Below are positions 13,785 to 26,020 of a stretch of 64,000 bases of DNA, piece by piece. Positions within the stretch are counted from its first letter, which is position 1. Each line of letters begins with the position of its first letter. A model generated the notes under the pieces. It searched no databases, was not told the origin of the DNA, and saw nothing but the letters and a program-made list of their open reading frames with translations. The stretch lies in NCBI GenBank assembly GCA_030537155.1, contig JAUNOH010000005.1, positions 22,282 through 86,281 on the forward strand. Reading direction: 5' to 3'. The position numbers and the translations under genes are program-made. Origin of the DNA: Bacillota bacterium (GTDB lineage Bacteria > Bacillota_I > Bacilli_A > RFN20 > CAG-826).

Positions 13785-16700
13785 TTATTCAATTCCGTGA
13801 TGTTTATATCCTAAGAAATAGGAAAGCATCTCTTCTTCGGTAATCAACCCTTTGCCCACTGCAACTTTTAAATATTTAACGTTGTACCGCGTGAATTGCT
13901 CGTATGAAACATATGCGGAGAAATCGTCGTATGTATATAGTCCATATGCCGCAATGTCCTGTTCCATTAGCTCCTCGTCATATTTGAGGTCTTCGCCGAC
14001 TTCGAAAATATTCAAATTGAAGACTTCCGGAATAACAGTAAGAATACCGTTTGCAACGAAATTCCAATTGTTTTCGGTTATGATGTCATACACTTCGACT
14101 GCTCGAGTCTCTTCTTCGATTCTTGTAACTGTCTTAGACGAAACCGCCCCGTCCTCGTAGGCAAGGACCGATTTTCCAATATGTTCTTCATCGCTCGAAT
14201 CGATTGTGAAATACTCCAAAGTTTCCAAATCGAAATATGATTGGCCGCCCGATGTTTCTAAATACGTCCCGTCGTCGAAGAACACAGTGACAACATGACG
14301 TTCAACCTCTTCCCTCCTTTCGATATAGATAACAGAAGCTTCTTCGTAGCATCCGTTAAAGAAACTGTAGGACATCACTGTGTCTTCTAAAGAAATGTCT
14401 TCCACTGCTTTCGGGGAGCCGTCCGCCATCGAGATCATGGAACCAGCCAAAATGCATGATTGAGAATAGTACCAATAAGCAGTGAGGTCATAATTTGCCC
14501 CTGCGGTAAATGGATCAGAATAGCCGTTAAGTCCCATATCGGCCGGATTGCATGTCACCGTATTGGTGAAGCTGTAGGAAGAGTCGTTTTCCACAGAAAG
14601 GCCGTCCAAATTAGTCTCGGTTTTAACGTCTTGATTGGCGGCGTAATTCATCAAAGAGGACGTCCCGGTCAATACATATTGCAGTTTGAAATAAGCTCCG
14701 AAAGCAACATAAACAACCGAGGTGGATGGTTTGCTAGTCGACCCCATGCCAGTGCTCTGACCAACCGAATAATAGCTACTAGAGTCATTCTTATTCCAGG
14801 ACTCGTAGACAACCCACGAGAAGTGGCCGGTACCTGAATTCCATCCTTGGCCATCGCCGCTCCACTTGGTCTCGCCCGTCTTAATGTCGTAGTAGAAAGA
14901 TAATGACACGGCTTCGGCAGGGGTAATGGTCAAAGTATAGTCGTCATCCATGAGGAAAAGTGATCCGTTAACCAAACTGGTCACATCGGTACCCGACGAA
15001 TCCTTAAGAGAATATGTTCGCGTCCTCGTAACATTAATCTTTATGTACATTCCGATATCGATATTGAACGAAGACGCACTGGTGCCCAGACTGGTGGTTT
15101 CGCCGCTTTCGCTAGAGCTTTGGAAAATTTCGTAGCCATAAACGCTGTGTGCGAACGAAACGTCCTCGACAACCACCGTCAAGGTATGCGTGGTTGCAAA
15201 GGCCCCGGCCCAACAATATTGACTATCGTAAAAAATAGATGTGTAAGTCGCAGGCGCAGTGAAATTAGAATTCACGATCTCATTTGTGGGGGTGTTATAC
15301 ATAATCCCTGTAGTTATTACGCTGCAGCTGCTGCCCGCATATCCCTCATCAGATGTCACGGTGAACTGCGTAGATGCGGGCGCCAACGAAAAATCCAAAA
15401 CCGCCCCTCCTTCGACCAGGGTCGTATGCTGAATATTGGCTCCAAGCGCAGCGTTCCCGCTACCATCTGTATTCAAAGCCAAGGTGCCATTCATTATGAA
15501 TTGGGCGTCTTCACCACCGTCATACGAATATAGAACCGACGCATCGTCGCTGCTCAACACCGCTCCGGCCGCATCATGAAAAATCAATTCGTTATTGACG
15601 TTAAAAGTCCCGCCCTGCAGCACCTCCATATATGATCCTAAAAGGAACTTCATACGGTAAGGCATAGTGAAAACTGCCCCACTTTGAATATACATATTCA
15701 TTTTGCACGAAACTGGTAGAAAACAATTTCTAGTATCAAGGGTGGCGCTTATGCCAGACATGCTTACCGAATAATAGAGGTAGCCTAGCGTCGCCTCCCC
15801 GGCAAAAACTATATTCGTTTTTGCACTGTAATCCCTCAAGGTATATCTAACATCCGTTGGATAATACTCCATGGTTATCGAACCCGACGACATATAGAAC
15901 ATGGATTCTTCGGAAGTATTGTTAGTTATCATCGTTACAGTTTTGCTCATGGCGGTGCCACTCGGTCCAACCATGAGAATATCCGCATTAAGCTTGGCTC
16001 CACAATTAATAGTTGTATAAGTCTGGGATGCCGGAAGATCGAACGTCCAAAATGGAACCTGATTCGCTGTAAGCAAGCTCCCTAAACGTCCCTGCGAGCC
16101 AGCATCGTATGTTGCTATGAATGTGTTCATCACGGATCCGGAATTAAGCAAAAGGTACCTATCTTGATCGAATGAGTTATTAATGATTCCACTATTCGAC
16201 TCTTGAAATGGGTTTGCGTAATCGTCATAGCTTTCTTTGATATAGCCGAAGCAATCTAGGGTCCCGTTAACGGTAATCGAACTTCCGAATCCCAAATTAA
16301 TTTCGCTATAGTAGCCATTGTTTCCACTAACGCTCGCAACCCCACCTATTTGCAAAGTCCCGTTGACAACAATATCGGCTCCTTCCCTCATATTCAGGAG
16401 GATCCGGCGATACAAATTAACGTTGCTGGAGCTTTGATCCCCTGCCTTGCCGCCATAAGCGTCCCTGTTGTCCGCGCTGTCTAACCGATACATAGGGCTG
16501 GTAGTATCGCTTGATTTAGCTTTGCCTTGAAAAGGAAGGCACAATGTAACACCGCTCGGAATGGTTAATGTTGTTTCACAGTCGATGGATTGCCCGGTGT
16601 AAACATAAACGGTGCTGTTAGCGGAAGCTGAATTAAGGGCCGCGGAAATTGAAGTGTACTGAGTTCCTGTAGAGCTGTTGTAACAAAGGGCGGTCGTAGT

Positions 16701-16838
16701 CGAAATTGTGTTACTGACACTGGCGCTATTAACCGTGTATTCGGCGTCCCAAACCCAAGAAGCTTCACCAATGGTTACGCAAAGAATGGAGAGAAAAACC
16801 CCTAGAAACATAAAGATTTTTCCAAGAGCCTTTTTCAT
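13785..16838 (-). CDS. 1017-aa secreted/anchored beta-helix-like protein with a C-terminal Hint (intein-like) domain and an 80-aa tail
   Basis: N-terminal signal-anchor MKKALGKIFMFLGVFLSILCVTIG. The body is S/T/N/G-rich with repeated xxNGTLxx strands. The Hint-like blocks are CILAGSMISMADGSPKAVEDISLEDTVMS and VYDIITENNWNFVANGIL. Codon usage is AT-richer than in the flanking genes. Confidence 0.75.
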   Translation of the reverse strand: MKKALGKIFMFLGVFLSILCVTIGEASWVWDAEYTVNSASVSNTISTTTALCYNSSTGTQYTSISAALNSASANSTVYVYTGQSIDCETTLTIPSGVTLCLPFQGKAKSSDTTSPMYRLDSADNRDAYGGKAGDQSSSNVNLYRRILLNMREGADIVVNGTLQIGGVASVSGNNGYYSEINLGFGSSITVNGTLDCFGYIKESYDDYANPFQESNSGIINNSFDQDRYLLLNSGSVMNTFIATYDAGSQGRLGSLLTANQVPFWTFDLPASQTYTTINCGAKLNADILMVGPSGTAMSKTVTMITNNTSEESMFYMSSGSITMEYYPTDVRYTLRDYSAKTNIVFAGEATLGYLYYSVSMSGISATLDTRNCFLPVSCKMNMYIQSGAVFTMPYRMKFLLGSYMEVLQGGTFNVNNELIFHDAAGAVLSSDDASVLYSYDGGEDAQFIMNGTLALNTDGSGNAALGANIQHTTLVEGGAVLDFSLAPASTQFTVTSDEGYAGSSCSVITTGIMYNTPTNEIVNSNFTAPATYTSIFYDSQYCWAGAFATTHTLTVVVEDVSFAHSVYGYEIFQSSSESGETTSLGTSASSFNIDIGMYIKINVTRTRTYSLKDSSGTDVTSLVNGSLFLMDDDYTLTITPAEAVSLSFYYDIKTGETKWSGDGQGWNSGTGHFSWVVYESWNKNDSSSYYSVGQSTGMGSTSKPSTSVVYVAFGAYFKLQYVLTGTSSLMNYAANQDVKTETNLDGLSVENDSSYSFTNTVTCNPADMGLNGYSDPFTAGANYDLTAYWYYSQSCILAGSMISMADGSPKAVEDISLEDTVMSYSFFNGCYEEASVIYIERREEVERHVVTVFFDDGTYLETSGGQSYFDLETLEYFTIDSSDEEHIGKSVLAYEDGAVSSKTVTRIEEETRAVEVYDIITENNWNFVANGILTVIPEVFNLNIFEVGEDLKYDEELMEQDIAAYGLYTYDDFSAYVSYEQFTRYNVKYLKVAVGKGLITEEEMLSYFLGYKHHGIE
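14028..14456 (-). other. Hint/bacterial-intein-like domain within the 1017-aa ORF (residues ~795-937)
   Basis: Cys795 (TGC at 14456..14454) opens an A-block-like motif. An F/G-block-like NFVANGIL is present, but there is no terminal His-Asn and no canonical TxxH. Confidence 0.6.
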
Positions 16839-16839
16839 T

Positions 16840-17103
16840 TCAAGCCAGCTCCTTGAAAATCGACAAATTAAAAGTGAGCGGGCTGACAGTAATCAAAGAG
16901 TAGAAATTTCCAGTAAACCCAAAGGAGAGATAGAAATAGGTAGTATCCGAAATGGTGAGCACATCACTCGAACACAACATTGACACACCATAGGTTAGTG
17001 AGCTCTCGTCGCTATTAGACAGTTCAATTGATTGCTCAGAATAGTAGCCGGTATCGGTGGAGGAAGTTAAAGATATTCCGCCGAAATACGAGCTTGAACT
17101 CAA
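16840..17103 (-). CDS. hypothetical S/T-rich small protein (TTG start overlapping the upstream stop; it may belong with the upstream ORF)
   Basis: 87-codon ORF with the only start a TTG in TATTGAGT. Its stop is 1 nt before the ATG of the 1017-aa ORF. No recognisable motif. Confidence 0.4.
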   Translation of the reverse strand: MSSSSYFGGISLTSSTDTGYYSEQSIELSNSDESSLTYGVSMLCSSDVLTISDTTYFYLSFGFTGNFYSLITVSPLTFNLSIFKELA

Positions 17104-17534
17104 TATTCCCGAGTTGTTACACGAAAATCGATTGTGAAAGAAAAAACACTACCGTCAGTCGAGCTAGTCAATAAATTGTTATCGCTCGCCTCCGCTGCGT
17201 TAAAACCAATCTCATAAACGAGGTCTGCGCTATCGACAACCTCTCCGGCAACGTCGAGACCTTGATCACAAACTGAGAAGTCTGCATTAACACTGGCGGA
17301 AACAAAGCAATCCGCCACAACTGTACCGGTGACTAGTTTGCCCACGGTAGCGTCTATTTCGACAAATGCCGACGTGTTACCCACATTCCACGACGAGAAA
17401 CCAACCCCAATGCAGGAAACAATTGCCAAGACCAAAATGAAAGCTGGATGTGAAAGCCTATGCCTCTTTCCTTTGCCGAGCTTTATTTCGGACGAAGTGT
17501 TTGATATATCTTTATTCCGCTTTCTCAGTTTCAT
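17100..17534 (-). CDS. hypothetical membrane-anchored/secreted small protein
   Basis: Basic N-terminus and a TM segment AFILVLAIVSCIGVGFSSW. The motif C-x3-G-x-S-S-W is shared with the 1017-aa ORF (CVTIGEASW). Confidence 0.55.
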   Translation of the reverse strand: MKLRKRNKDISNTSSEIKLGKGKRHRLSHPAFILVLAIVSCIGVGFSSWNVGNTSAFVEIDATVGKLVTGTVVADCFVSASVNADFSVCDQGLDVAGEVVDSADLVYEIGFNAAEASDNNLLTSSTDGSVFSFTIDFRVTTREY

Positions 17535-17998
17535 AGATATTCAGGGTGATTATCGCACTCATTTTCAGCATTTGAAATTGTAAAAAATCAAGCACGCTTA
17601 AGCGTGTGTCGCAAAAATCCTCAATATTTGCCGTTATTCAACCTTCGTCGCGTATCATAAGTATTCATTCGCGCATTTGTGTCGCATATTTCTTGTTCAT
17701 TATGAAGTTTTTAAAGTTACGTGTTCCTTGGGTCGCTGAAAACACCCCACCCCTACCGTTTACGAATTACGCAATCTTTCGGATTTCTCCTCAAAAGCTT
17801 TACGCCAATCGAATAAATTCATGATTTGAAGAATTTGGCTATGAATGGAGCCGAATTTTTGTACACGAGTCGTTCAAGAATTGAAAATAATCATGATTAA
17901 CACTTGGTTTTATTGCTTTTATGTCGCTCATAAAAGTAGAATTCCCGTGTCATTTCATCTGAATTGGGCGAGCCCATTCATTTAGCTTGGGGGGACAA

Positions 17999-19015
17999 AT
18001 GGTTAAAAGGAATAATCTCCTGGATATATTCAAACTGATTTTGGCCGTCGGGGTCATCTTCGTCCATTTTCCCTTCGAGGGGCCTATCGGTAACTTCTTC
18101 GCCTCCATCGGCACCACCGGGGTAATCGTCTTTTTCCTCATAAGCGGATATTCCTGCTATAAAGGCGAAAACACCGACAATTCGCCGACGATTCTAAGGA
18201 GAACGCGCCGGATTTTAAACCTGACTTTAGTGTCTGTGCTCATCTATCTGATATTCACGATCATCGAAAAGGCAACCTTAGGCACCATCGCCGAATGGGC
18301 AAGCACCTACTTCACCAATCCCCTCTTCTATTTGAGGCTCATCGTCTTGGGTGACTTTGAGTTCATCCATGGGGACCACCTCTGGTTCTTGCTGGCTTTG
18401 CTATATGGCTACCTGATCATGTATCTGGTCGAAAAGAAGAGGCTTAGAAAACCCTTGGCCATCGCCCTGCCCTTCCTGATATTGCTCCGGATTGGGATGG
18501 AGACCTACACCAATTCCTTCGGGGCTGACTGGCATTTATCCGGGAACGTTTTGGTCGGGGCCCTCCCGATGCTGGCTTTGGGCTACTTCATCCACGCGAA
18601 GGAAGAAAGCTTGCTTAAAATCGAAGGCCGTTACTGGATATCCGCCCTGATCCTCTCCTACATCCTCATGTACTACGCGGTCAATAACAAAGCCTTTGGC
18701 CTCGACATCTCCCAGATCTTCAAGGTGTCCACCGCCGCTTTGTCTTTCCTTTGTTGCCTCTCCTACCCCACCCTCATCAAAGACAACCTCATAGCCGCCT
18801 TTGGCCGCTGGGGCTCTTTATATATCTATGTCTTCCATTACCTGATCGGGGTGCTTTTAAAAGACATCTTCATGGCCAATGGGATCACGGGAGATTTCTA
18901 CTCCACCCACTTCCCCTGGATCGTCGTGGGGGTGAGCTTATTATTCGCCGCCTTATTGGCCTTAGCCGAGACGAGGCTATTGCCCAAGTTGAAACATAAA
19001 GCGAACAAGGCATAA
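17999..19015 (+). CDS. acyltransferase family 3 membrane protein
   Basis: ~10-TM protein starting MVKRNNLLDIFKLILAVGVIFVHF, typical of the Acyl_transf_3 N-terminus. The ATG is at 17999. Confidence 0.75.
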   Translation: MVKRNNLLDIFKLILAVGVIFVHFPFEGPIGNFFASIGTTGVIVFFLISGYSCYKGENTDNSPTILRRTRRILNLTLVSVLIYLIFTIIEKATLGTIAEWASTYFTNPLFYLRLIVLGDFEFIHGDHLWFLLALLYGYLIMYLVEKKRLRKPLAIALPFLILLRIGMETYTNSFGADWHLSGNVLVGALPMLALGYFIHAKEESLLKIEGRYWISALILSYILMYYAVNNKAFGLDISQIFKVSTAALSFLCCLSYPTLIKDNLIAAFGRWGSLYIYVFHYLIGVLLKDIFMANGITGDFYSTHFPWIVVGVSLLFAALLALAETRLLPKLKHKANKA

Positions 19016-19109
19016 AGGGATTCACATTCCGATTTCACATCGGTGAATCCATCATTCACGAGAGTTACTCCCTATGCTTTGCTAACATAGCCTCAGGAGG
19101 GATGACGCC

Positions 19110-19724
19110 ATGAATTTCCCCTACAAGCTAAAAGAATTAAGAAAGCAGAAGAACCTCACGCAGGAGGAACTTGCCAAGGAGATCTTCGTCTCGAGGACCC
19201 TGATCAGCAAATACGAGAACGGGGCCGCCTACCCCACCAGGGAGACGATCGAAAAGCTCGCCCTCTTCTTTGGCGTCAAGATATCCGATTTAGTCGATGA
19301 GGATGACACGGCCACCCTGGCGTTGAGGCAGTTGGATACCATCCATAAGCTAAACCTCGTCCTCCAGATCGTGATCATACTCATCACCCTGAGTGCGGCC
19401 ATCCTGAGCTTTCTTCCCATCGTGCAGGGCTCCTATTACGACTATGCGAATTATCAATATGCCCCGGGCACCTCGCCAGATAGGGTCCCCTTTACCATCA
19501 GCCCCCTGGCGATCACCTTAATCAGGAACGGAAACCCCATCGTCCTGATCGGGATGATCAGCTGCTTTGCTAATTCGGCTTTGGCCGGATTCTCGCTCCG
19601 GTTTAGGGACAACGTCTGGCTCCGCTTCATCTCCTATGCCCTATTCGTCGTCAACATCTTCCTCATCTTCTTCTCCATCGTCTTCTGCGCGGGCTACGCG
19701 AGCATGTACATGGGCGATATGTGA
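19110..19724 (+). CDS. XRE-family HTH regulator with a C-terminal multi-TM domain
   Basis: LKELRKQKNLTQEELAKEIFVSRTLISKYENG followed by 3-4 hydrophobic helices. An AGGAGG RBS is present. Confidence 0.8.
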   Translation: MNFPYKLKELRKQKNLTQEELAKEIFVSRTLISKYENGAAYPTRETIEKLALFFGVKISDLVDEDDTATLALRQLDTIHKLNLVLQIVIILITLSAAILSFLPIVQGSYYDYANYQYAPGTSPDRVPFTISPLAITLIRNGNPIVLIGMISCFANSALAGFSLRFRDNVWLRFISYALFVVNIFLIFFSIVFCAGYASMYMGDM

Positions 19725-19776
19725 TTGCTTCCGGAAACAAAAAAGGACCCAGCTCACGCCGGGTCTATTTTTTCAA

Positions 19777-19835
19777 TGGTGGACCAGCTGTCGTACCAGA
19801 CGAACCACCGTCTGTTTTTGAAAAAGCATCGAATA
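19777..19835. repeat. att-like repeat copy C
   Basis: TGGTGGACCAGCTGTCGTACCAGACGAAC...TTTTTGAAAAAGCATCGAATA, about 90 percent identical to 20853-20910 over the first 30 nt. Confidence 0.7.
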
Positions 19836-20024
19836 CATCACGAAATTTACTTATATGTCTATTCGATTGTTTTGGTGTACGGCTGTCTCATGTCCCCATC
19901 ACCAATTCACAGCCTCGAACGTTTCACGCCGTCTGAGAGGGTCTCTGCTTCCGAGGAATAGGCAAAATGTTTATGGCAATAAAAATAGGGCAGAATTTTC
20001 TTCCGCCCCATCCTCTTGAAGACA

Positions 20025-20297
20025 CTATCTATCGTAGATTTCCCTTCGATGGCCGATGGCGATGACGAGGATTATGAGCTTATCGTCTTTGATCTCACAC
20101 ACCATGCGGTAGTCTCCGATTCGGTAACGCCAATAGTCTTTGAGGTTGCCCTTGAGGGCTTTCCCACTAAGTCTAGGGTTCTCGACATTAGTCAAATGCT
20201 TATTGATCCACGACTGGATCATCCTTTTGGTGTAGCCGTCGAACTTAGTGAATTCCTTCGCAGCTTCCTTCGAAAACTCGATCTTATAAAAGGCCAT
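20025..20297 (-). CDS. relE: RelE/ParE-family type II toxin
   Basis: MAFYKIEFSKEAAKEF...YWRYRIGDYRMVCEIKDDKLIILVIAIGHRREIY. The ATG at 20297 overlaps the antitoxin stop by 14 nt. Confidence 0.85.
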   Translation of the reverse strand: MAFYKIEFSKEAAKEFTKFDGYTKRMIQSWINKHLTNVENPRLSGKALKGNLKDYWRYRIGDYRMVCEIKDDKLIILVIAIGHRREIYDR

Positions 20298-20508
20298 TGT
20301 TCTTCTGGACTTCTTCCCAGGAAATGGTCTTTTCCTTACCTTCATCGATAGCGACCATCCTCTCGTCGGCGATGGCTATATCGAATTCGTCTTCAATTGC
20401 CTCGAAATAGACTTTCTTGATGGCTTCGCTGAGGGTCATGCCCTTTAATTGCGCATAGCTTTTTGCAAGTTGCTCTTGCTCTTTGGTCATTCTGATTGAG
20501 ATGCTCAT
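20284..20508 (-). CDS. relB: RelB/DinJ-like ribbon-helix-helix antitoxin
   Basis: MSISIRMTKEQEQLAKSYAQLKGMTLSEAIKK; AGGAGG RBS; located upstream of the RelE gene. Confidence 0.8.
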   Translation of the reverse strand: MSISIRMTKEQEQLAKSYAQLKGMTLSEAIKKVYFEAIEDEFDIAIADERMVAIDEGKEKTISWEEVQKNNGLL

Positions 20509-20690
20509 TTAGACGGTCCTCCTATCTGTATCACATTGTATTACATCATTTCGCGTTTTCCAATGCCCTAGGCAAAAGTTAATTGATTCTTTCAGTTTAA
20601 ACTCTCCTCAGCAACTCATAAGACGTTCCCTTTTGTTTGCCTAGGATTTAGATTGCATATCAAAAACCGCCAAGGCCTCAATCCTTGGCG

Positions 20691-20852
20691 GTCTTTATTA
20701 GTTCGGGCCACGTACCATCAGAGATACTTTTCCAGAACAGCTCGATCTCCCCCTTTTTTTCGAAAATCTCTCGACAAGGGCCTTAGTATTAAAAGCGACC
20801 CACGACTACGTATCTATGAACGTAGAATTCCGGGGTCGCCTACTGATACAAA
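20691..20852 (-). pseudogene. degenerate second copy of the tRNA-proximal short ORF plus its terminator
   Basis: The minus strand reads ...FEKKGEIELFWKSISDGTWPELIKTAKD*, compared with ...FSKKGEIEKFWKSLSDGTWRELIKADKD* in the copy at 22853. In-frame stops lie upstream. The terminator hairpin ACCGCCAAGG/CCTTGGCGGT is at 20666-20692. Confidence 0.55.
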
Positions 20853-20910
20853 TGGTGGACCAGATGTCGTACTAGACGAACTCGATATTTATTTTGAAAA
20901 AGCATCGAAT
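20853..20910. repeat. att-like repeat copy B
   Basis: TGGTGGACCAGATGTCGTACTAGACGAAC...TTTTGAAAAAGCATCGAAT. Confidence 0.7.
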
Positions 20911-21133
20911 TCAACACATAATTTTGAATACCTAGTTGCTTATCTATTTGGAAAAGTCGCACCTTCATATGCCGACAATTGAACTCACCGGAAAGATTTA
21001 GCCTCACATATACGATGCTGATAAGCATGTCAAAATACATATATATGACTGCAACCGATAAATGACGTTTAAGGGGCAAGAAAATTGAGTATTTTGTAAG
21101 TTTATGCCCCTTAACTTGCATTTAACGTATAAT

Positions 21134-22468
21134 TCATTTGATCACCTTCCACCTACCCATCTTTTTGGACCCCACCCTTATGATGAGGCCTTTTTTCTGC
21201 AAACTGGCAAGCGCTCTTTCGACGGTTCTCAGACTTTTCCCGGTTTCCTGGGATAGCGAAATTGAGGTATGGCTCGGATTCGACAAAAGCAAACCGATAA
21301 TCTCGTTTTCTGTATCGCTGAGATTTAAGCCGCCGCTTAAACCATCGTTTAGACCAACGCTTAGACCGAAATTCTGCTTTTCCAGAACAGCCTTATTAAA
21401 CGGGATAATGACATTTATATAGGAATCTGTGATCTCGAAAGCGCCTTCCCCGTATTCCGAAACTATCACCGGGACGCCGTGACCTGTATGCTCAACTATC
21501 CCCATATCGAGGAAGATCCTCATTAGCTTTTCGTTTCTCGGCCTGCTTATACCTTTGAAAAATTGCTCTTTGGTTTGATTATGCGGGAGACCCCCATGCG
21601 AGAGAATTTCTATCCTATCCGAGAAAAAAGAAACCAGCGGTTCGGTTATGCTCCAATCATTATGCACCAGCGCATTAACAACAGCCTCATTGACGGCATC
21701 AAAATTGAAAAGATATATGTCTTTCCTAGGCCTTACGGTTGTGTCCGTGACACATATATTCTCAGCAGAAATCCTGTTCATCAGCTGTTCATAGGCAAAC
21801 AGCAGACATTGATTCCCGTAGTCGCTTCTCTGAGAAATCGAAACCTTGTCGGTTCCTTTGAATTTCACAAAGATCAAAGGAATCGTATTTCTATCAGACA
21901 TCAACTCGGCGAGTTTGTTGTATTCACCATCCGCGTTCCTTAAAAACAGATTCGTCTCAAAGGAATTGTCATTCAAATGAAAGCCTTTCTCAGAATAATA
22001 GATCTTCAATGTTTTAAAAGATATCAAACCGTAACTAGTGGGAGAACTCACCAAAATGTCGTTATTGAAGAAACGCTTTTCATAGCGAACCCTGATTTGC
22101 TCTTGGGTCATTTCGCGGCAGGTCGTACCAACTCTTATGGAGCAGCCTGTCGACGAAAAACCATATTTCTTTTGACAATAAATCGGACTGCTTCCTTTTT
22201 TAATAGCCACATTGACTATCGTTTTCCCTTCGTTATAGATAAGTTCCGTTTTTACGATATCCTGGGGATTCGGTTCGATTTGATTGGTTATCACATCGGC
22301 AAGATCTCTGCACACTTGATCAACATCATCGACCCCGACGATTTCCCCATCGTCTTTTACACCGATATAGATGTTTCCTCCTTCGGCGTTTAGAAATGAG
22401 ACTATCTCTTTGCAAATGGTGTTTGAATATTTCTGCTTGAGTTCCACTAGATTAGATTCGATTAACAT
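21134..22468 (-). CDS. AlbA_2 (Schlafen-type) domain ATP-binding protein with a C-terminal wHTH
   Basis: ESNLVELKQKYSNTICKEIVSFLNAEGGNIYIGVKDDGEIVGV (AlbA_2 signature), HTGHGVPVIV (HATPase_c_4-like), and the terminal RTVERALASLQKKGLIIRVG. Confidence 0.75.
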   Translation of the reverse strand: MLIESNLVELKQKYSNTICKEIVSFLNAEGGNIYIGVKDDGEIVGVDDVDQVCRDLADVITNQIEPNPQDIVKTELIYNEGKTIVNVAIKKGSSPIYCQKKYGFSSTGCSIRVGTTCREMTQEQIRVRYEKRFFNNDILVSSPTSYGLISFKTLKIYYSEKGFHLNDNSFETNLFLRNADGEYNKLAELMSDRNTIPLIFVKFKGTDKVSISQRSDYGNQCLLFAYEQLMNRISAENICVTDTTVRPRKDIYLFNFDAVNEAVVNALVHNDWSITEPLVSFFSDRIEILSHGGLPHNQTKEQFFKGISRPRNEKLMRIFLDMGIVEHTGHGVPVIVSEYGEGAFEITDSYINVIIPFNKAVLEKQNFGLSVGLNDGLSGGLNLSDTENEIIGLLLSNPSHTSISLSQETGKSLRTVERALASLQKKGLIIRVGSKKMGRWKVIK

Positions 22469-22504
22469 ATATTAATTCTCCTATCTACACGATAATTGTA
22501 CTTT

Positions 22505-22598
22505 AATCCGTCACAGAATGCAATTTATACCGTCATAAACCGTCATTAAAACCGCCAAATGTCGATTAGAGCGTTTTAAACCGCCATAAAACCGCTAT
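22505..22598. repeat. iteron-like array of six A(A/T)ACCG(T/C)CA motifs upstream of the AlbA_2 gene
   Basis: The CCG cores are at 22508, 22530, 22540, 22552, 22581 and 22592, with spacings of 22, 10, 12, 29 and 11 bp. All copies are in the same orientation. Confidence 0.6.
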
Positions 22599-22852
22599 TG
22601 GGCATAAGCCGGCCAGAATATTTCATGCCAAGGTTATAGATATGAATGCCTAGTATAGTTTCTTCAATGGTTTAACGATCATGGACTCTATATATTCAAA
22701 GTCTTTTGAAGGCAATCACGGCCAAAAAACAGTTTTAGGAGCAAAAAAATAAATGAAATCGGTTTAGCCGTGTCCGATGCTTGGCCGATTATATTTGATC
22801 GAAATGAAACGTAACAATAGGGGTGGAAAAGAAAAAGGCTGACAGGGACCTT

Positions 22853-23026
22853 TCAGTCCTTGTCAGCCTTTATTAGTTCTCGCCACGTCCCATCACTGAG
22901 ACTTTTCCAGAACTTTTCGATCTCACCTTTTTTCGAGAATCTTTCGATGAGAGCAGTATTATCGAAGGCTATCCCTACTGTGTATCTATCTACATAGACA
23001 AACTGGGGTTCGCCTGGATGAACAAT
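22853..23026 (-). other. short ORF or gene 3' fragment directly downstream of tRNA-Phe, with terminator
   Basis: The track ORF 22853..23059 begins inside the tRNA. The conserved part is ...RYTVGIAFDNTALIERFSKKGEIEKFWKSLSDGTWRELIKADKD*. A 14-bp-stem hairpin plus T-run lies at 22826-22870. Confidence 0.35.
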
Positions 23027-23102
23027 TGGTGGTCCAAGGGGGAGTTGAACCCCCGACACGTGGATTTTCAGTCCACTGCTCTACCAGCTGAGCTACCGGA
23101 CC
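23027..23102 (-). tRNA. tRNA-Phe (GAA), CCA encoded
   Basis: The reverse complement GGTCCGGTAGCTCAGCTGGTAGAGCAGTGGACTGAAAATCCACGTGTCGGGGGTTCAACTCCCCCTTGGACCACCA folds as a cloverleaf with anticodon loop CTGAAAA. Confidence 0.95.
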
Positions 23103-23109
23103 ACACGCT

Positions 23110-23186
23110 TGGCGGATCGTACGGGATTCGAACCCGTGATCTTCTCCGTGACAGGGAGACATGTTGGACCACTACACCAACGATCC
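23110..23186 (-). tRNA. tRNA-Asp (GTC), CCA encoded
   Basis: The reverse complement is GGATCGTTGGTGTAGTGGTCCAACATGTCTCCCTGTCACGGAGAAGATCACGGGTTCGAATCCCGTACGATCCGCCA. The anticodon stem-loop is TCTCC-CTGTCAC-GGAGA. Confidence 0.95.
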
Positions 23187-23331
23187 ATGGCTTAAGCGCC
23201 CTAATATTATCCATAGGAGACCTAGCAATTGCAAGAAGCAGAAAATAGCCTTTTTTCCTTATGGAAAGCCATGATTTAGCCGATTACACGGCTCGACCCA
23301 AAACGGGGCATGATGTTATCATCATAGCAAC

Positions 23332-24285
23332 ATGAGGAAATCGATCATCAGCCTATTGGGCGCCGGCACTTTGGTGGTGGCCGGGGTCATTTTCACGGGC
23401 TTTGGCTTCCTCAATTTCTCCTCCGCCTACCCCGAGGAGGGCGAATACTCCTCCTGGCTATCTAAAATCGACGACTCCACCAAGATAAACTCATTGATGA
23501 TCCCCGGTTCCCACGACTCCGGGGCCCTATATTCGATCGCCGAGCTAAGTGGTAAATGCCAGGATCTCGATATCGCCGGCCAATTAAACGTCGGGGTCCG
23601 CTTCTTCGACTTGAGGCTGCAGCTATATAACAACGAACTGAAGGTCATCCACGGGGTGGTCGACGAGAGTCTGCTATTTCAGGATGTCCTCTCCTCCTTC
23701 TCCTCCTTTTTAAAGGAGCACCCCGAGGAATTCCTATTGGTCTCCATCAAGATGGAGGATGAATCGGTCAATTCAAAACTTAGCTTTGAGGATGCCCTAT
23801 TGGGGGAGATATCCTCCGGGGCCGCTTCGATTTGGAGTAGCTCCACCATTCTCCCCGAGACGGTCGGAGAGGCCCGTGGCTATATCCATCAACTATCGCG
23901 TTATGCGGACAGCTCGATTGGGCTAGCATCCTACGATGGGTGGCAAGATCCCGATGGTGCTGAGGAAAGCAATAGCTTTGAGCTCGGTGATTACCTCTAC
24001 GTCCAGGACCATTACCGGCTCACCGACGCCTCCGATAAGCAAGATGAGATCCTATCGACCATGGCCCATAGCCAAGATGACGATTCGAGGCTCCACCTCA
24101 ATTTCCTCTCGGGGTATCTCACCTCATCATTCCCGCCAAGCTACGCCCCATCGATCGCCAAGACCATCAACCCCTGGTTCATCTCCCTGCTGGAAGATGG
24201 AAAGCAGGCGCCGGGCGTCTATATCGCCGATTTCGTGGCCTCAGATATGTGCGAAGCCATCATAGGGGGCAATTATGTGGCTTAG
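23332..24285 (+). CDS. secreted/anchored PI-PLC X-domain phospholipase C-like protein
   Basis: N-terminal TM segment, then LMIPGSHDSGA, VRFFDLRL and LKVIHG motifs of the PI-PLC X domain. Confidence 0.75.
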   Translation: MRKSIISLLGAGTLVVAGVIFTGFGFLNFSSAYPEEGEYSSWLSKIDDSTKINSLMIPGSHDSGALYSIAELSGKCQDLDIAGQLNVGVRFFDLRLQLYNNELKVIHGVVDESLLFQDVLSSFSSFLKEHPEEFLLVSIKMEDESVNSKLSFEDALLGEISSGAASIWSSSTILPETVGEARGYIHQLSRYADSSIGLASYDGWQDPDGAEESNSFELGDYLYVQDHYRLTDASDKQDEILSTMAHSQDDDSRLHLNFLSGYLTSSFPPSYAPSIAKTINPWFISLLEDGKQAPGVYIADFVASDMCEAIIGGNYVA

Positions 24286-24688
24286 GATCGAGAAGATAAT
24301 AAAGACCGTAACGGCCTGCTTATCCATCCTCCTCTATTCCCTTTTCGCCGTTTTGGAGGCCATCCAATTATCGCAGGGCATCTATACCCTCTTCGAGAAT
24401 CCGGGAACTGGGTTTTCGCTGTATTTCTTCCGCCTATTGGCCTGCCTAGTCGGGTTAACCTGCGGGTCTTTATCCATCTGGGCGAGTCTAGGCAAAAGGG
24501 CAATCTTTCCCCTCCTCAACCCGATATTTATGGGATATTGCTTCCTGTTATCGTTATTAATCTGCGTCCAGGGGGCGCCTTTATTCGGATTATCCAACGG
24601 CTCTTTCTTAATCGCCTTCCCAGTCGTGGCCGGGATTGGGCTTGTACTATCTCTATATCGGCTATACGAAGAAAAGAATAGGATTTAG
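24275..24688 (+). CDS. hypothetical 4-TM membrane protein
   Basis: 137-aa hydrophobic ORF overlapping the PI-PLC stop. Confidence 0.5.
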   Translation: MWLRIEKIIKTVTACLSILLYSLFAVLEAIQLSQGIYTLFENPGTGFSLYFFRLLACLVGLTCGSLSIWASLGKRAIFPLLNPIFMGYCFLLSLLICVQGAPLFGLSNGSFLIAFPVVAGIGLVLSLYRLYEEKNRI

Positions 24689-25095
24689 GAAAAGCTCAAC
24701 CTCTCAACGGGCTGGCTATTCCAATGAAACAGTTTCCAGATTAGTTTTATTGGTAAAACATAGCCGAGCAAAAAGCTGATGTCCTTATATTTTCAGATTA
24801 ATAAATACCGTAAATTTTACGACGATACGTAAAAATTATGGTAAAGGGGCATTCGTGTATGCGTCCGTCTTGGCAAAAGGAAGAACATTTTAATCCGGCA
24901 GGTGGGCCCACAAAGCACTTTGACGAGTTTTGCTGCCGCTGTGGGGATACTCCCGACTTTGCTGCAAGGTCCCTTAATTCAGCTGTATACGATATGAAGA
25001 CAACTCAACGCGCTCTTCTTCGGTTCGCCCGAACGAGCGACGGTCAAAGCGCCCCATACTTATTTATAGCTTCCATAGGTTCGGCGACTTATGAT

Positions 25096-25956
25096 TCAAT
25101 CGCCTATCTCCTCATAGTAATAGGAATAATCGATGCCTTTCATGAAGACTTCTCGGCTTTCGACATCCTCGCATAGGGCCTGTTTTAATAAGACTTTGAG
25201 TGGTTCGGGGTTCAGGGGGCTTTTTTCCATCGCGCGAAGGTACTCCTCTTTGCCAATCTTCGACCAGTCTATGCAGGAGGATAACCCCCTCTTCAGCATT
25301 TGATCAAGCCAGATTCGCGTCGCCCTCCCATTCCCCTCCATAAAGGGGTGGGCGACATTCATCTCCACATATTTATCGACGATTTCCTCAAAACTTCCTT
25401 CCCCCATCGCTTCTATTTTTGCCAAGGCGTTTGGAAGAGAATCCCAGGAGGCGAAAAGAAACCCGCCCTTCGAGATATTTTTATCCCTGACCTTTCCGGC
25501 AAACGGATATAGTCCAGCGAAAAGGTAGGAATGAATCTGTCTTAATCCCTTGACGGTACCAATTTCAAAATCATTCAGCAAATCTCCCTCATATAGCGCA
25601 AGCGCCCTTTGTTTGGATCTCTCATCTAAAGGGGAGGAACCACCCCTAACCCATTCCCTAAGGGAATCGCGGTCTTTAAGCGGGATGAGATAAAGCGTTT
25701 CCGAAACCCCCGTTTCATCCAGCAGATCGCTTTGATACGCCTTTCCATCGGAAGCGGTGAGTTTTCCTTGATAAGTCATTCCGGCCAACTGGGGATGGCG
25801 CCTCTTCAAAGCATTCCAATATAGCCTCGGGTTACTTGAATCGACAAAGGCTTTGATCAAGTCAACAGCCGAGTAGAGGTAAAGCGATCTCCCATCATCC
25901 CAAAGGGCGCGAACCGGGGTCTTCCCAAAGTAGCGGATTGAGGTCTTTTTCTTCAT
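25096..25956 (-). CDS. Fic-family protein with an N-terminal Bro-N/RhuM-like region
   Basis: Canonical Fic motif HPFMEGNGRATR. The N-terminal ~95 aa (IRYFGKTPVRALWDDGRSLYLYSAVDLIKAF) resembles Bro-N/RhuM DNA-binding modules. Confidence 0.8.
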   Translation of the reverse strand: MKKKTSIRYFGKTPVRALWDDGRSLYLYSAVDLIKAFVDSSNPRLYWNALKRRHPQLAGMTYQGKLTASDGKAYQSDLLDETGVSETLYLIPLKDRDSLREWVRGGSSPLDERSKQRALALYEGDLLNDFEIGTVKGLRQIHSYLFAGLYPFAGKVRDKNISKGGFLFASWDSLPNALAKIEAMGEGSFEEIVDKYVEMNVAHPFMEGNGRATRIWLDQMLKRGLSSCIDWSKIGKEEYLRAMEKSPLNPEPLKVLLKQALCEDVESREVFMKGIDYSYYYEEIGD

Positions 25957-26020
25957 AGAAAAATTATACCATCGTGCTCAGTTGTATACAATTTGTAAAC
26001 AACTGAAGAAGATACAAAAA

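Follow-up and report, generated by a model that had tools for sequence, protein, structure and literature searches.

A conserved Hint-tail cassette at the C terminus of secreted proteins of gut Bacillota is a candidate for autoprocessing

Hint domains carry out the chemistry of protein splicing and of Hedgehog cholesterol modification. A gene on the minus strand of a 64,000-nucleotide stretch of DNA from a Bacillota bacterium (GenBank assembly GCA_030537155.1, contig JAUNOH010000005.1, positions 22,282 to 86,281; the whole stretch is referred to here as the window) encodes a secreted or surface protein that ends in a Hint domain followed by a conserved tail. We put the probability at about 0.55 that residues 795 to 1017 of this protein, as conservation and a structure model suggest, form a self-contained, single-turnover C-terminal autoprocessing cassette, in which the passenger would be cut at S794/C795 from an intact Hint-tail unit. 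Hint domain and tail together are a fixed, very abundant, and unstudied cassette, in which a recognized Hint domain is joined to an undescribed conserved domain. The full-text literature searched contained no description of the cassette, and no Pfam family was found for the tail.

RESULTS

Organization of the gene

The 1,017-amino-acid product is identical to NCBI MDO5330286.1, which comes from a metagenome-assembled genome (cluster member P0176 in our searches) and is named "Hint domain-containing protein [Bacillota bacterium]." Its Hint assignment is already annotated, and its tail carries no annotation. A preliminary description of this DNA, made from the letters and the translated open reading frames (ORFs), had singled out the same region as a noncanonical Hint domain with an unassigned C-terminal tail; every string and coordinate that it quoted proved exact against the translation of the ORF. 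The parts of the gene are as follows.

13785..16838, minus strand: whole gene, a 1,017-codon ORF for a secreted or surface protein (from the ORF list)
16758..16838 (extent approximate), minus strand: signal peptide or membrane anchor, MKKALGKIFMFLGVFLSILCVTIGEASW, read from the sequence; cleavage predicted
14457..16757, minus strand: passenger, residues ~28 to 794
14454..14459, minus strand: predicted scissile junction S794/C795, with C795 as the Hint position-1 nucleophile
14025..14456, minus strand: Hint domain, residues 795 to 938 (AlphaFold2, Foldseek, PDB profile alignment, and column counts)
13788..14024, minus strand: conserved C-terminal tail, residues 939 to 1017 (VFNLNIFEV...HHGIE)

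The interval 13788 to 14456 spans exactly C795 to the final codon, and Hint domain plus tail make up the last 223 residues. C795, encoded by the codon at 14454 to 14456, is the first residue of CILAGSMISMADGS (which begins CILAGS). SGGQSYFD corresponds to residues 863 to 870 and places Gln866 at the block-B His position. The segment VYDIIT...NNWNFVANGILTVIPE (residues 916 to 938) closes the domain without His-Asn, its last strand being GILTVI. The key Hint residues of the window are C795, E840, Q866, K889, D918 (the block-F acidic residue), and N924.

Residues 795 to 938 resemble Hint domains

The 223-residue piece scored 19.8 bits against the NCBIfam model intein_Cterm (cutoff, 15.6) and matched Pfam Intein_splicing at an E value of 5e-5, below threshold; matches to Hom_end_hint and AXH were also subthreshold. 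A phmmer search of the PDB aligned residues 3 to 140 to the BIL2 domain (BIL, bacterial intein-like) of Tetrahymena BUBL (E value, 2e-4), which the family profile reached at 2.7e-10. When the profile was aligned to the Hedgehog structure 1AT0 in this PDB search, its positions 6 to 77 fell on Hh-C 1 to 72 with no net offset. C795 aligned with Cys1 of both 1AT0 and BIL2, in agreement with its earlier reading as the start of an intein A-block-like motif. The likeness of the VYDIIT... segment to intein F/G blocks, likewise noted before, was borne out by the Intein_splicing and intein_Cterm matches.

An alignment of 15 cassettes was made before structure prediction. AlphaFold2 modeled 228 residues with a mean predicted local distance difference test (pLDDT) score of 90.2 and a predicted template modeling (pTM) score of 0.86, giving a beta-rich domain at residues 6 to 146 and then five short helices. 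Foldseek searches of the PDB returned BIL2 (6y75/6tmm) as the best match (E value, 6e-11; target TM score, 0.83; probability, 1.00), together with the Hedgehog Hint domain 1AT0 (1.3e-9; target TM score, 0.79), more than 40 intein chains, and a Clostridium thermocellum BIL domain (2LWY), at E values of up to 1e-8. These matches cover ~150 residues, that is, the Hint part only. The preliminary description had staked its reading on a Hint-fold prediction, and AlphaFold2 with Foldseek gives that fold. The likeness of residues 795 to 938 to Hint domains is not due to chance, and the sequence evidence from the window by itself is weak but consistent. Judged from pLDDT and pTM over the whole model rather than from atom coordinates, the prediction suggests a fixed arrangement of Hint domain and tail.

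The window departs from the better-known Hint families at several points. The TxxH motif of block B is not matched: the window reads S-G-G-Q, and the family majority reads x-x-E-H, usually with Ile or Val at the Thr position. Searched against the Pfam Hint families to which the preliminary description had pointed, the window stayed below threshold in every case; it had no match to PF01079 (Hedgehog-type Hint) at an E value of ≤1 and none to Hint_2 (PF13403) or PT-HINT (PF07591). PF01079 is the Pfam model most often matched by family members; it was weakly matched by 10 of 15 relatives (best E value, 3e-5), and many relatives have precomputed PF01079 matches. Hint_2 and PT-HINT were each matched weakly by 3 of the 15, the best Hint_2 match (2.8e-4) being below threshold. 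The canonical intein C terminus, His-Asn followed by Cys, Ser, or Thr, is absent from the window, where the Hint domain ends ...GILTVIPE-V; this had been seen before and holds for the family consensus, NGMLSMPGG, which has neither Asn nor a downstream nucleophile. A canonical second cleavage is therefore impossible.

The cassette is widespread at the C termini of diverse secreted proteins

An exhaustive profile search over 1.84 billion cluster representatives recovered 8,724 clusters at an E value of ≤1e-3, 3,721 at ≤1e-10, and 2,019 at ≤1e-30, and the best 150 matches all span profile positions 2 to 229. An earlier word-indexed search had returned 12 relatives, missing even a 99%-identical protein, and badly understated the family. 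The label "noncanonical Hint" stands insofar as the domain is nonsplicing and has a Cys nucleophile, but it is not a one-off: the window holds one copy of a very large cassette family.

Full-length searches returned proteins of ~1,000 amino acids with the same architecture as well as unrelated large proteins ending in the cassette. Passengers range from 50 to more than 4,000 residues and are very varied in sequence; among them are subtilisin (Peptidase_S8) regions and Listeria-Bacteroides repeats, and others resemble lipases and leucine-rich repeats by eye, without a domain-library scan. The passenger of the window had no match in Pfam or PDB sequence searches and has homologues among the passengers of numerous other proteins with the cassette. 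Most complete cassette proteins begin with a signal-peptide-like N terminus.

The cassette ends within 10 residues of the protein C terminus in 158 of 168 full cassettes. Exceptions are P0026, five representatives with an extra domain, and three with acidic low-complexity extensions. P0026 (3,496 amino acids) carries two cassettes internally, with a C-terminal transmembrane region after them, and in L022 (4147 to 7782) an internal cassette is followed by ~370 residues of acidic low-complexity sequence. The extra domain, conserved and ~88 residues long, follows the tail (…YILEAFEESGTSLE…WEVSYDG…) in the rare-architecture set P0046, P0077, P0101, P0128, and P0102.

Among species-representative genomes, 425 loci match a single peptide pattern. 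The 80 of these that were listed are all from uncultured bacteria, almost all labeled gut, fecal, or rumen Bacillota; two are labeled Alistipes and Prevotella. Host labels include Oscillospiraceae, Christensenellaceae, Faecousia, Ruminococcus, "Bacilli," Acholeplasmatales, and Anaeroplasma, and the Acholeplasmatales are placed in the class Mollicutes, bacteria without a cell wall. A phage origin of the cassette was considered and rejected, as only ~11 IMG/VR contigs carry a full cassette.

One arrangement bears on how the cassette moves. In L004 and L005, the contigs with P0001, a 349-residue cassette protein directly follows a Peptidase_S8 gene; the same contig encodes phage-integrase and Mob_Pre (plasmid-mobilization) domains. 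A different sample has a single protein (P0027) in which the S8 domain is fused to the cassette. This arrangement suggests that genes have split or fused and that the cassette has spread horizontally.

The tail is the best-conserved part of the cassette

Mean column identity is 49% in the tail and 45% over the whole cassette. Residues N943, F945, D961, I962, Y965, G966, L967, Y970, Y989, K996, and G997 are invariant or nearly so. The tail is acidic (pI 4.1 to 4.5), contains many aromatic residues (15 of 79), and lacks any membrane-like hydrophobic stretch. Modeled alone, it reached a pLDDT of 84.7 with about five short helices, and it is predicted to pack against the Hint domain as a family-specific acidic helical domain.

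The preliminary description had proposed a search for homologues of the tail: these exist throughout the cassette family, in which the tail is kept, and none were found outside it in Pfam, PHROGs, the PDB, or BFVD. Foldseek searches with the tail-only model retrieved nothing from the PDB (best E value, 6.4) or BFVD (best E value, 2.7), and searches of Pfam and PHROGs with the tails gave scattered subthreshold matches with nothing consistent. Two candidates were considered. The XkdX phage motif (PF09693), which was rejected, was matched by 1 of 18 tails, that of the window itself, at 18.9 bits against a cutoff of 23.5; the match is 18 residues long and has no counterpart in BFVD fold searches. 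EF-hand_6 was matched by 2 of 18 tails (E value, ~0.05), and in the DIxxYGLxTYEE loop an invariant Tyr sits where a calcium ligand would be.

Gln replaces the block-B His in a minority of cassettes

All 362 unique cassettes have Cys1, which is also invariant in three sets counted separately (168/168, 86/86, and 102/102). At the block-B position, 351 of the 362 have His and the other 11 have Gln, with no other residue seen. The preliminary observation that this His is missing was correct for the window, where the residue is Gln866, but what it captured is a minority Gln-type subgroup rather than a property of the family.

Together with P0214/P0215, L006, L008, L009, P0216, and P0221/P0224, the window falls in a core Gln-type cluster, in which nearest neighbors are also Gln type (37 to 57% identity). 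The Gln-type cassettes P0218 and P0313 have His-type nearest neighbors instead (52 to 55% identity), so that the His-to-Gln change has at least three separate origins. Cys1 is kept in every one of the 11 Gln-type cassettes. An Asp or Glu residue at block-F position 130 (D918 in the window), the canonical intein F-block Asp position, occurs in 9 of the 11 and in 15 of the 351 His-type cassettes (Fisher exact P = 2.5e-10, uncorrected for shared ancestry). The restriction to His or Gln, the repeated origin of Gln, the retention of Cys1, and the coupled change together point to an alternative, constrained active site and not a dead one. Conservation thus argues that the Gln type is a working alternative rather than a product of decay, with its activity being our inference.

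Two further positions were noted. The position aligned with Hedgehog D46, the conserved Asp that serves there as general base for the incoming hydroxyl, is E840 in the window and Asp in 152 of 168 top representatives. A D46 equivalent was rejected as a family hallmark, as it holds in the largest subgroup only. Profile position 138 (N926 in the window) is Cys in 125 of 168 members of the largest subgroup (GHLCYYVNG); this Cys might be a partner for Cys1, in the manner of the internal Cys in the Hedgehog Hint domain, or serve as a second nucleophile.

Strain variants, N-terminal motif, and gene neighborhood

The window gene was compared with its counterpart in a 99%-identical metagenome contig, L001 (10001 to 13054). 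The two differ at 8 nonsynonymous and 0 synonymous codons; the changed residues are 249, 300, 653, 656, 661, 665, and 728, all in the passenger, plus S794P. The adjacent alpha-amylase gene shows no differences. Such changes may reflect diversifying selection on the passenger, 8 being too few for a test. Five strain variants show no amino acid change within the cassette, which is weak evidence given the total of 8 changes. Pro at position -1 occurs in 7 of 245 junctions, 6 of them in His-type members; as a sign of inactivity it was rejected, being also present in His-type cassettes and hence not diagnostic.

The N-terminal segment of the window protein, MKKALGKIFMFLGVFLSILCVTIGEASW, closes with an [ST]-W motif that is common to homologues and to a small gene upstream; it had no match in NCBIfam. 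Many cassette proteins (homologues in L006 to L085) have a hydrophobic N terminus ending in G-x-[ST]-[ST]-W or ...TFAWFTDS, and the latter ending presumably resembles the TasA/SipW-type signal class. The upstream gene is located as follows.

16840..17534, minus strand: small gene for a transmembrane protein with a GFSSW motif, split by a 1-nucleotide deletion near 17123

Its N terminus (…GVGFSSWNVG) has the same transmembrane segment and S-W motif as the Hint protein. The gene is intact in L001 (231 amino acids) and divided in the window into ORFs of 144 and 87 amino acids; the deletion lies in a T-run, T4 in the window versus T5 in L001. The split could represent a sequencing error, phase variation, or a pseudogene.

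All ORFs were clustered across the 80 genome loci. No family, whether partner enzyme or immunity gene, was conserved in more than 12 of them, and since no conserved neighbor emerged, the cassette appears to act alone, that is, to be autonomous. A small transmembrane protein with an SxW motif occurs in 8 of the 80 loci, the comparable gene there being ~226 amino acids long and matched by size, position, and N-terminal transmembrane segment and S-W motif only; a SipW-like signal peptidase occurs in 4 of 80. The next gene downstream of the Hint gene in the window is the alpha-amylase gene.

From ~14000 to 26000, GC content is low (0.43 to 0.48, compared with ~0.55 elsewhere in the window). Genes in this stretch include the Hint gene and genes for an acyltransferase_3 protein, helix-turn-helix regulators, a Schlafen/AlbA_2-HATPase protein, and a PI-PLC-like protein; gene calls in L001 add a ParE toxin with a DUF6290 partner and a Fic protein. 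The stretch looks like an accessory or mobile island. Near 22548, 23 nucleotides found in L001 (AAATGGCGGTTTAAATGGCGGTT, two copies of a short unit) are absent from the window; this is a difference in tandem-repeat copy number upstream of the Schlafen/AlbA_2 gene.

DISCUSSION

Proposed mechanism

The preliminary interpretation is partly supported: cleavage or transfer at S794/C795 is plausible from sequence and model and is what would be expected, because the region has a Hint fold and Cys1 is present in 362 of 362 cassettes. After Sec export, to judge from fold and conservation, the Cys795 thiol would attack the Ser794 carbonyl in an N-S acyl shift, and the 794-residue passenger would then be held as a thioester. 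An external nucleophile would resolve the thioester and free the passenger from the Hint-tail unit. With no Asn and no downstream nucleophile to make a second cut, the Hint-tail fragment (~25 kDa) would remain intact. Internal cassettes, as in P0026 and L022, fit N-terminal cleavage and speak against the tail as a terminal sorting signal.

Nonsplicing Hint domains hydrolyze or ligate. In BIL2, the upstream domain is transferred to Lys amines (PMC8616854), and Hedgehog without its sterol recognition region (SRR) still hydrolyzes but cannot transfer cholesterol (PMC7242414). Hedgehog hydrolysis does not need the extension, and the cassette tail is never missing and exceeds the Hint domain in conservation; a part in positioning or gating the nucleophile is therefore more likely for it than that of a passive spacer. 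By analogy with the Hedgehog Hog unit, a Hint domain plus an adduct-recognition region, the tail would position or gate the nucleophile that resolves the thioester, and its role is probably to guide or control that step; the acceptor may be water under control. More speculatively, and on balance doubtful, the cassette would be a bacterial counterpart of Hog, a sortase-independent single-use ligase whose tail selects a nonwater nucleophile, for instance an amine, a glycan, or a lipid of the membrane. The occurrence of the cassette in genomes labeled as wall-less Mollicutes argues against peptidoglycan as a universal acceptor.

Evidence against autoprocessing and alternative explanations

Several observations weigh against the proposed cleavage and the proposed part of the tail in it. 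The block-B His, which is Gln866 in the window, is normally essential in model inteins and Hedgehog (PMC8616854, PMC6333167), which makes activity of the window copy a real uncertainty, although loss of this His can be compensated in an intein (PMC6333167). K889 occupies profile position 101 and N924 occupies position 136, where His is found in 163 and 151 of 168 cassettes, respectively; at position 136, His is present in only 44 of 86 cassettes of a more diverse genome set. The position aligned with D46 is variable (V/D/E/F/M) among these 86. Pro stands at position -1 in four near-identical strain variants, where the window has Ser794; in engineered inteins, Pro at this position disfavors cleavage at the N terminus. 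The Hedgehog SRR is hydrophobic, in contrast to the acidic, soluble cassette tail, which has no relative in Pfam, PHROGs, the PDB, or BFVD. The packing of the tail against the Hint domain is a prediction, and a contact between tail and active site is conjectural. For the whole cassette family, fold and conservation are the basis of the proposed chemistry.

These observations could also mean that catalysis was lost in the lineage of the window, leaving Hint domain and tail as a structural or binding module on a protein that stays full length. Q866, K889, and N924 in place of the His of 351/362, 163/168, and 151/168 cassettes would then be marks of decay, as would the variants with Pro at -1 and the failure of the window to pass threshold against any Pfam Hint model. 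Such a loss is hard to reconcile with the retention of Cys1 in all 11 Gln-type cassettes, at 37 to 57% mutual identity in the core cluster, or with a position that is only ever His or Gln and reached Gln at least three times, where drift would give varied residues. The Gln-type cassettes also gain an acidic block-F residue, and the absence of cassette changes among the five strain variants points the same way, weakly, with 8 changes in total. We regard loss of catalysis as unlikely, though a serious alternative to autoprocessing.

Two other explanations were considered. Many secreted bacterial proteins carry a Hint domain ahead of a C-terminal toxin (PMC3482391), and 3 of 15 members match PT-HINT (PF07591) weakly, so the cassette might be a polymorphic-toxin module in which a pretoxin Hint domain frees the 80-residue tail as a small toxin or signaling cargo. 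Release of the tail as cargo had also been raised in the preliminary description, and it is contradicted by the results: there is no Asn or +1 nucleophile for a cut between Hint domain and tail, a cut at Cys1 would keep the tail on the Hint domain, and the tail, far from being variable, is the best-conserved segment, with residues invariant across hundreds of cassettes. No conserved immunity-like gene lies downstream in the 80 loci, and here the downstream gene encodes an alpha-amylase. We therefore consider a toxin module very improbable. The intein-like block A and F/G motifs, and the presence of inteins among the best structural matches, might instead indicate a true or degenerate intein or a BIL-type splicing element within a host gene. 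To this we assign next to no weight, as the C-terminal junction of Asn, Gln, or Asp with Cys, Ser, or Thr is missing, no homing endonuclease is present, the Hint domain is followed by a family-specific tail that travels with it rather than by a C-extein resuming the host fold, and unrelated passengers carry the cassette at their end, not within a conserved host site.

Comparison with known systems

The architecture of the cassette most resembles the Hedgehog Hog domain; membership in the Hog family is not established. Both have a secreted passenger, a Cys1 Hint domain without a C-terminal Asn, and then a helical extension of 50 to 100 residues without homologues. 1AT0 is a top structural match, with Cys1 on Cys1 and His72 on the block-B position, and E840, a position that is Asp in the largest subgroup, is the acidic residue opposite D46. 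We know of no SRR structure. On the other side, the cassette is found in bacteria, a D46-like residue is not conserved family-wide, and the window itself has Gln in place of His72 and no PF01079 match. The SRR, moreover, is hydrophobic or membrane binding, and the cassette tail is acidic and soluble (PMC7242414).

BIL2 (PDB 6Y75/6TMM) is the closest solved relative by both sequence and structure, and it is a Hint domain that gives its upstream domain to an amine nucleophile rather than splicing conventionally (PMC8616854). Unlike the window, it has both the block-B His (H69) and an Asn at its C terminus, the crystallized mutant being C1A-N143A; unlike the cassette, it lies between ubiquitin-like domains and has no helical tail. 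Bacterial BIL, Hint_2, and PT-HINT domains are also nonsplicing Hint domains of secreted bacterial proteins, and they cleave at their N terminus; the C. thermocellum BIL domain (2LWY) is a structural match. To our knowledge, no conserved tail has been described for the BIL families. PT-HINT proteins, unlike the cassette, precede variable toxins, and no conserved tail is described for them (PMC3482391). Burglin's proteobacterial C-terminal Hint group is a distinct set of proteins (PMC2362128).

Significance

Thousands of surface or secreted proteins in uncultured bacteria of the gut and rumen end in this pair, a Hint domain permanently coupled with an 80-residue domain not described before. The natural alternation of His and Gln at block B, with the acidic block-F residue that goes with Gln, offers a ready test case for how the N-S acyl shift is catalyzed and could help to engineer intein-type tools. 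If the tail steers the thioester to one particular acceptor, bacterial surface proteins would have a new route to anchoring or conjugation that is independent of sortase, and the cassette would be a bacterial parallel to Hedgehog autoprocessing, the evolutionary origin of which is still open (PMC2362128). The family might also bear on the origin of Hog. Were the cassette a ligase, diverse secreted proteins of gut Bacillota would be covalently tethered or conjugated at a new C terminus, including those of wall-less bacteria labeled Mollicutes, in which anchoring to peptidoglycan is impossible.

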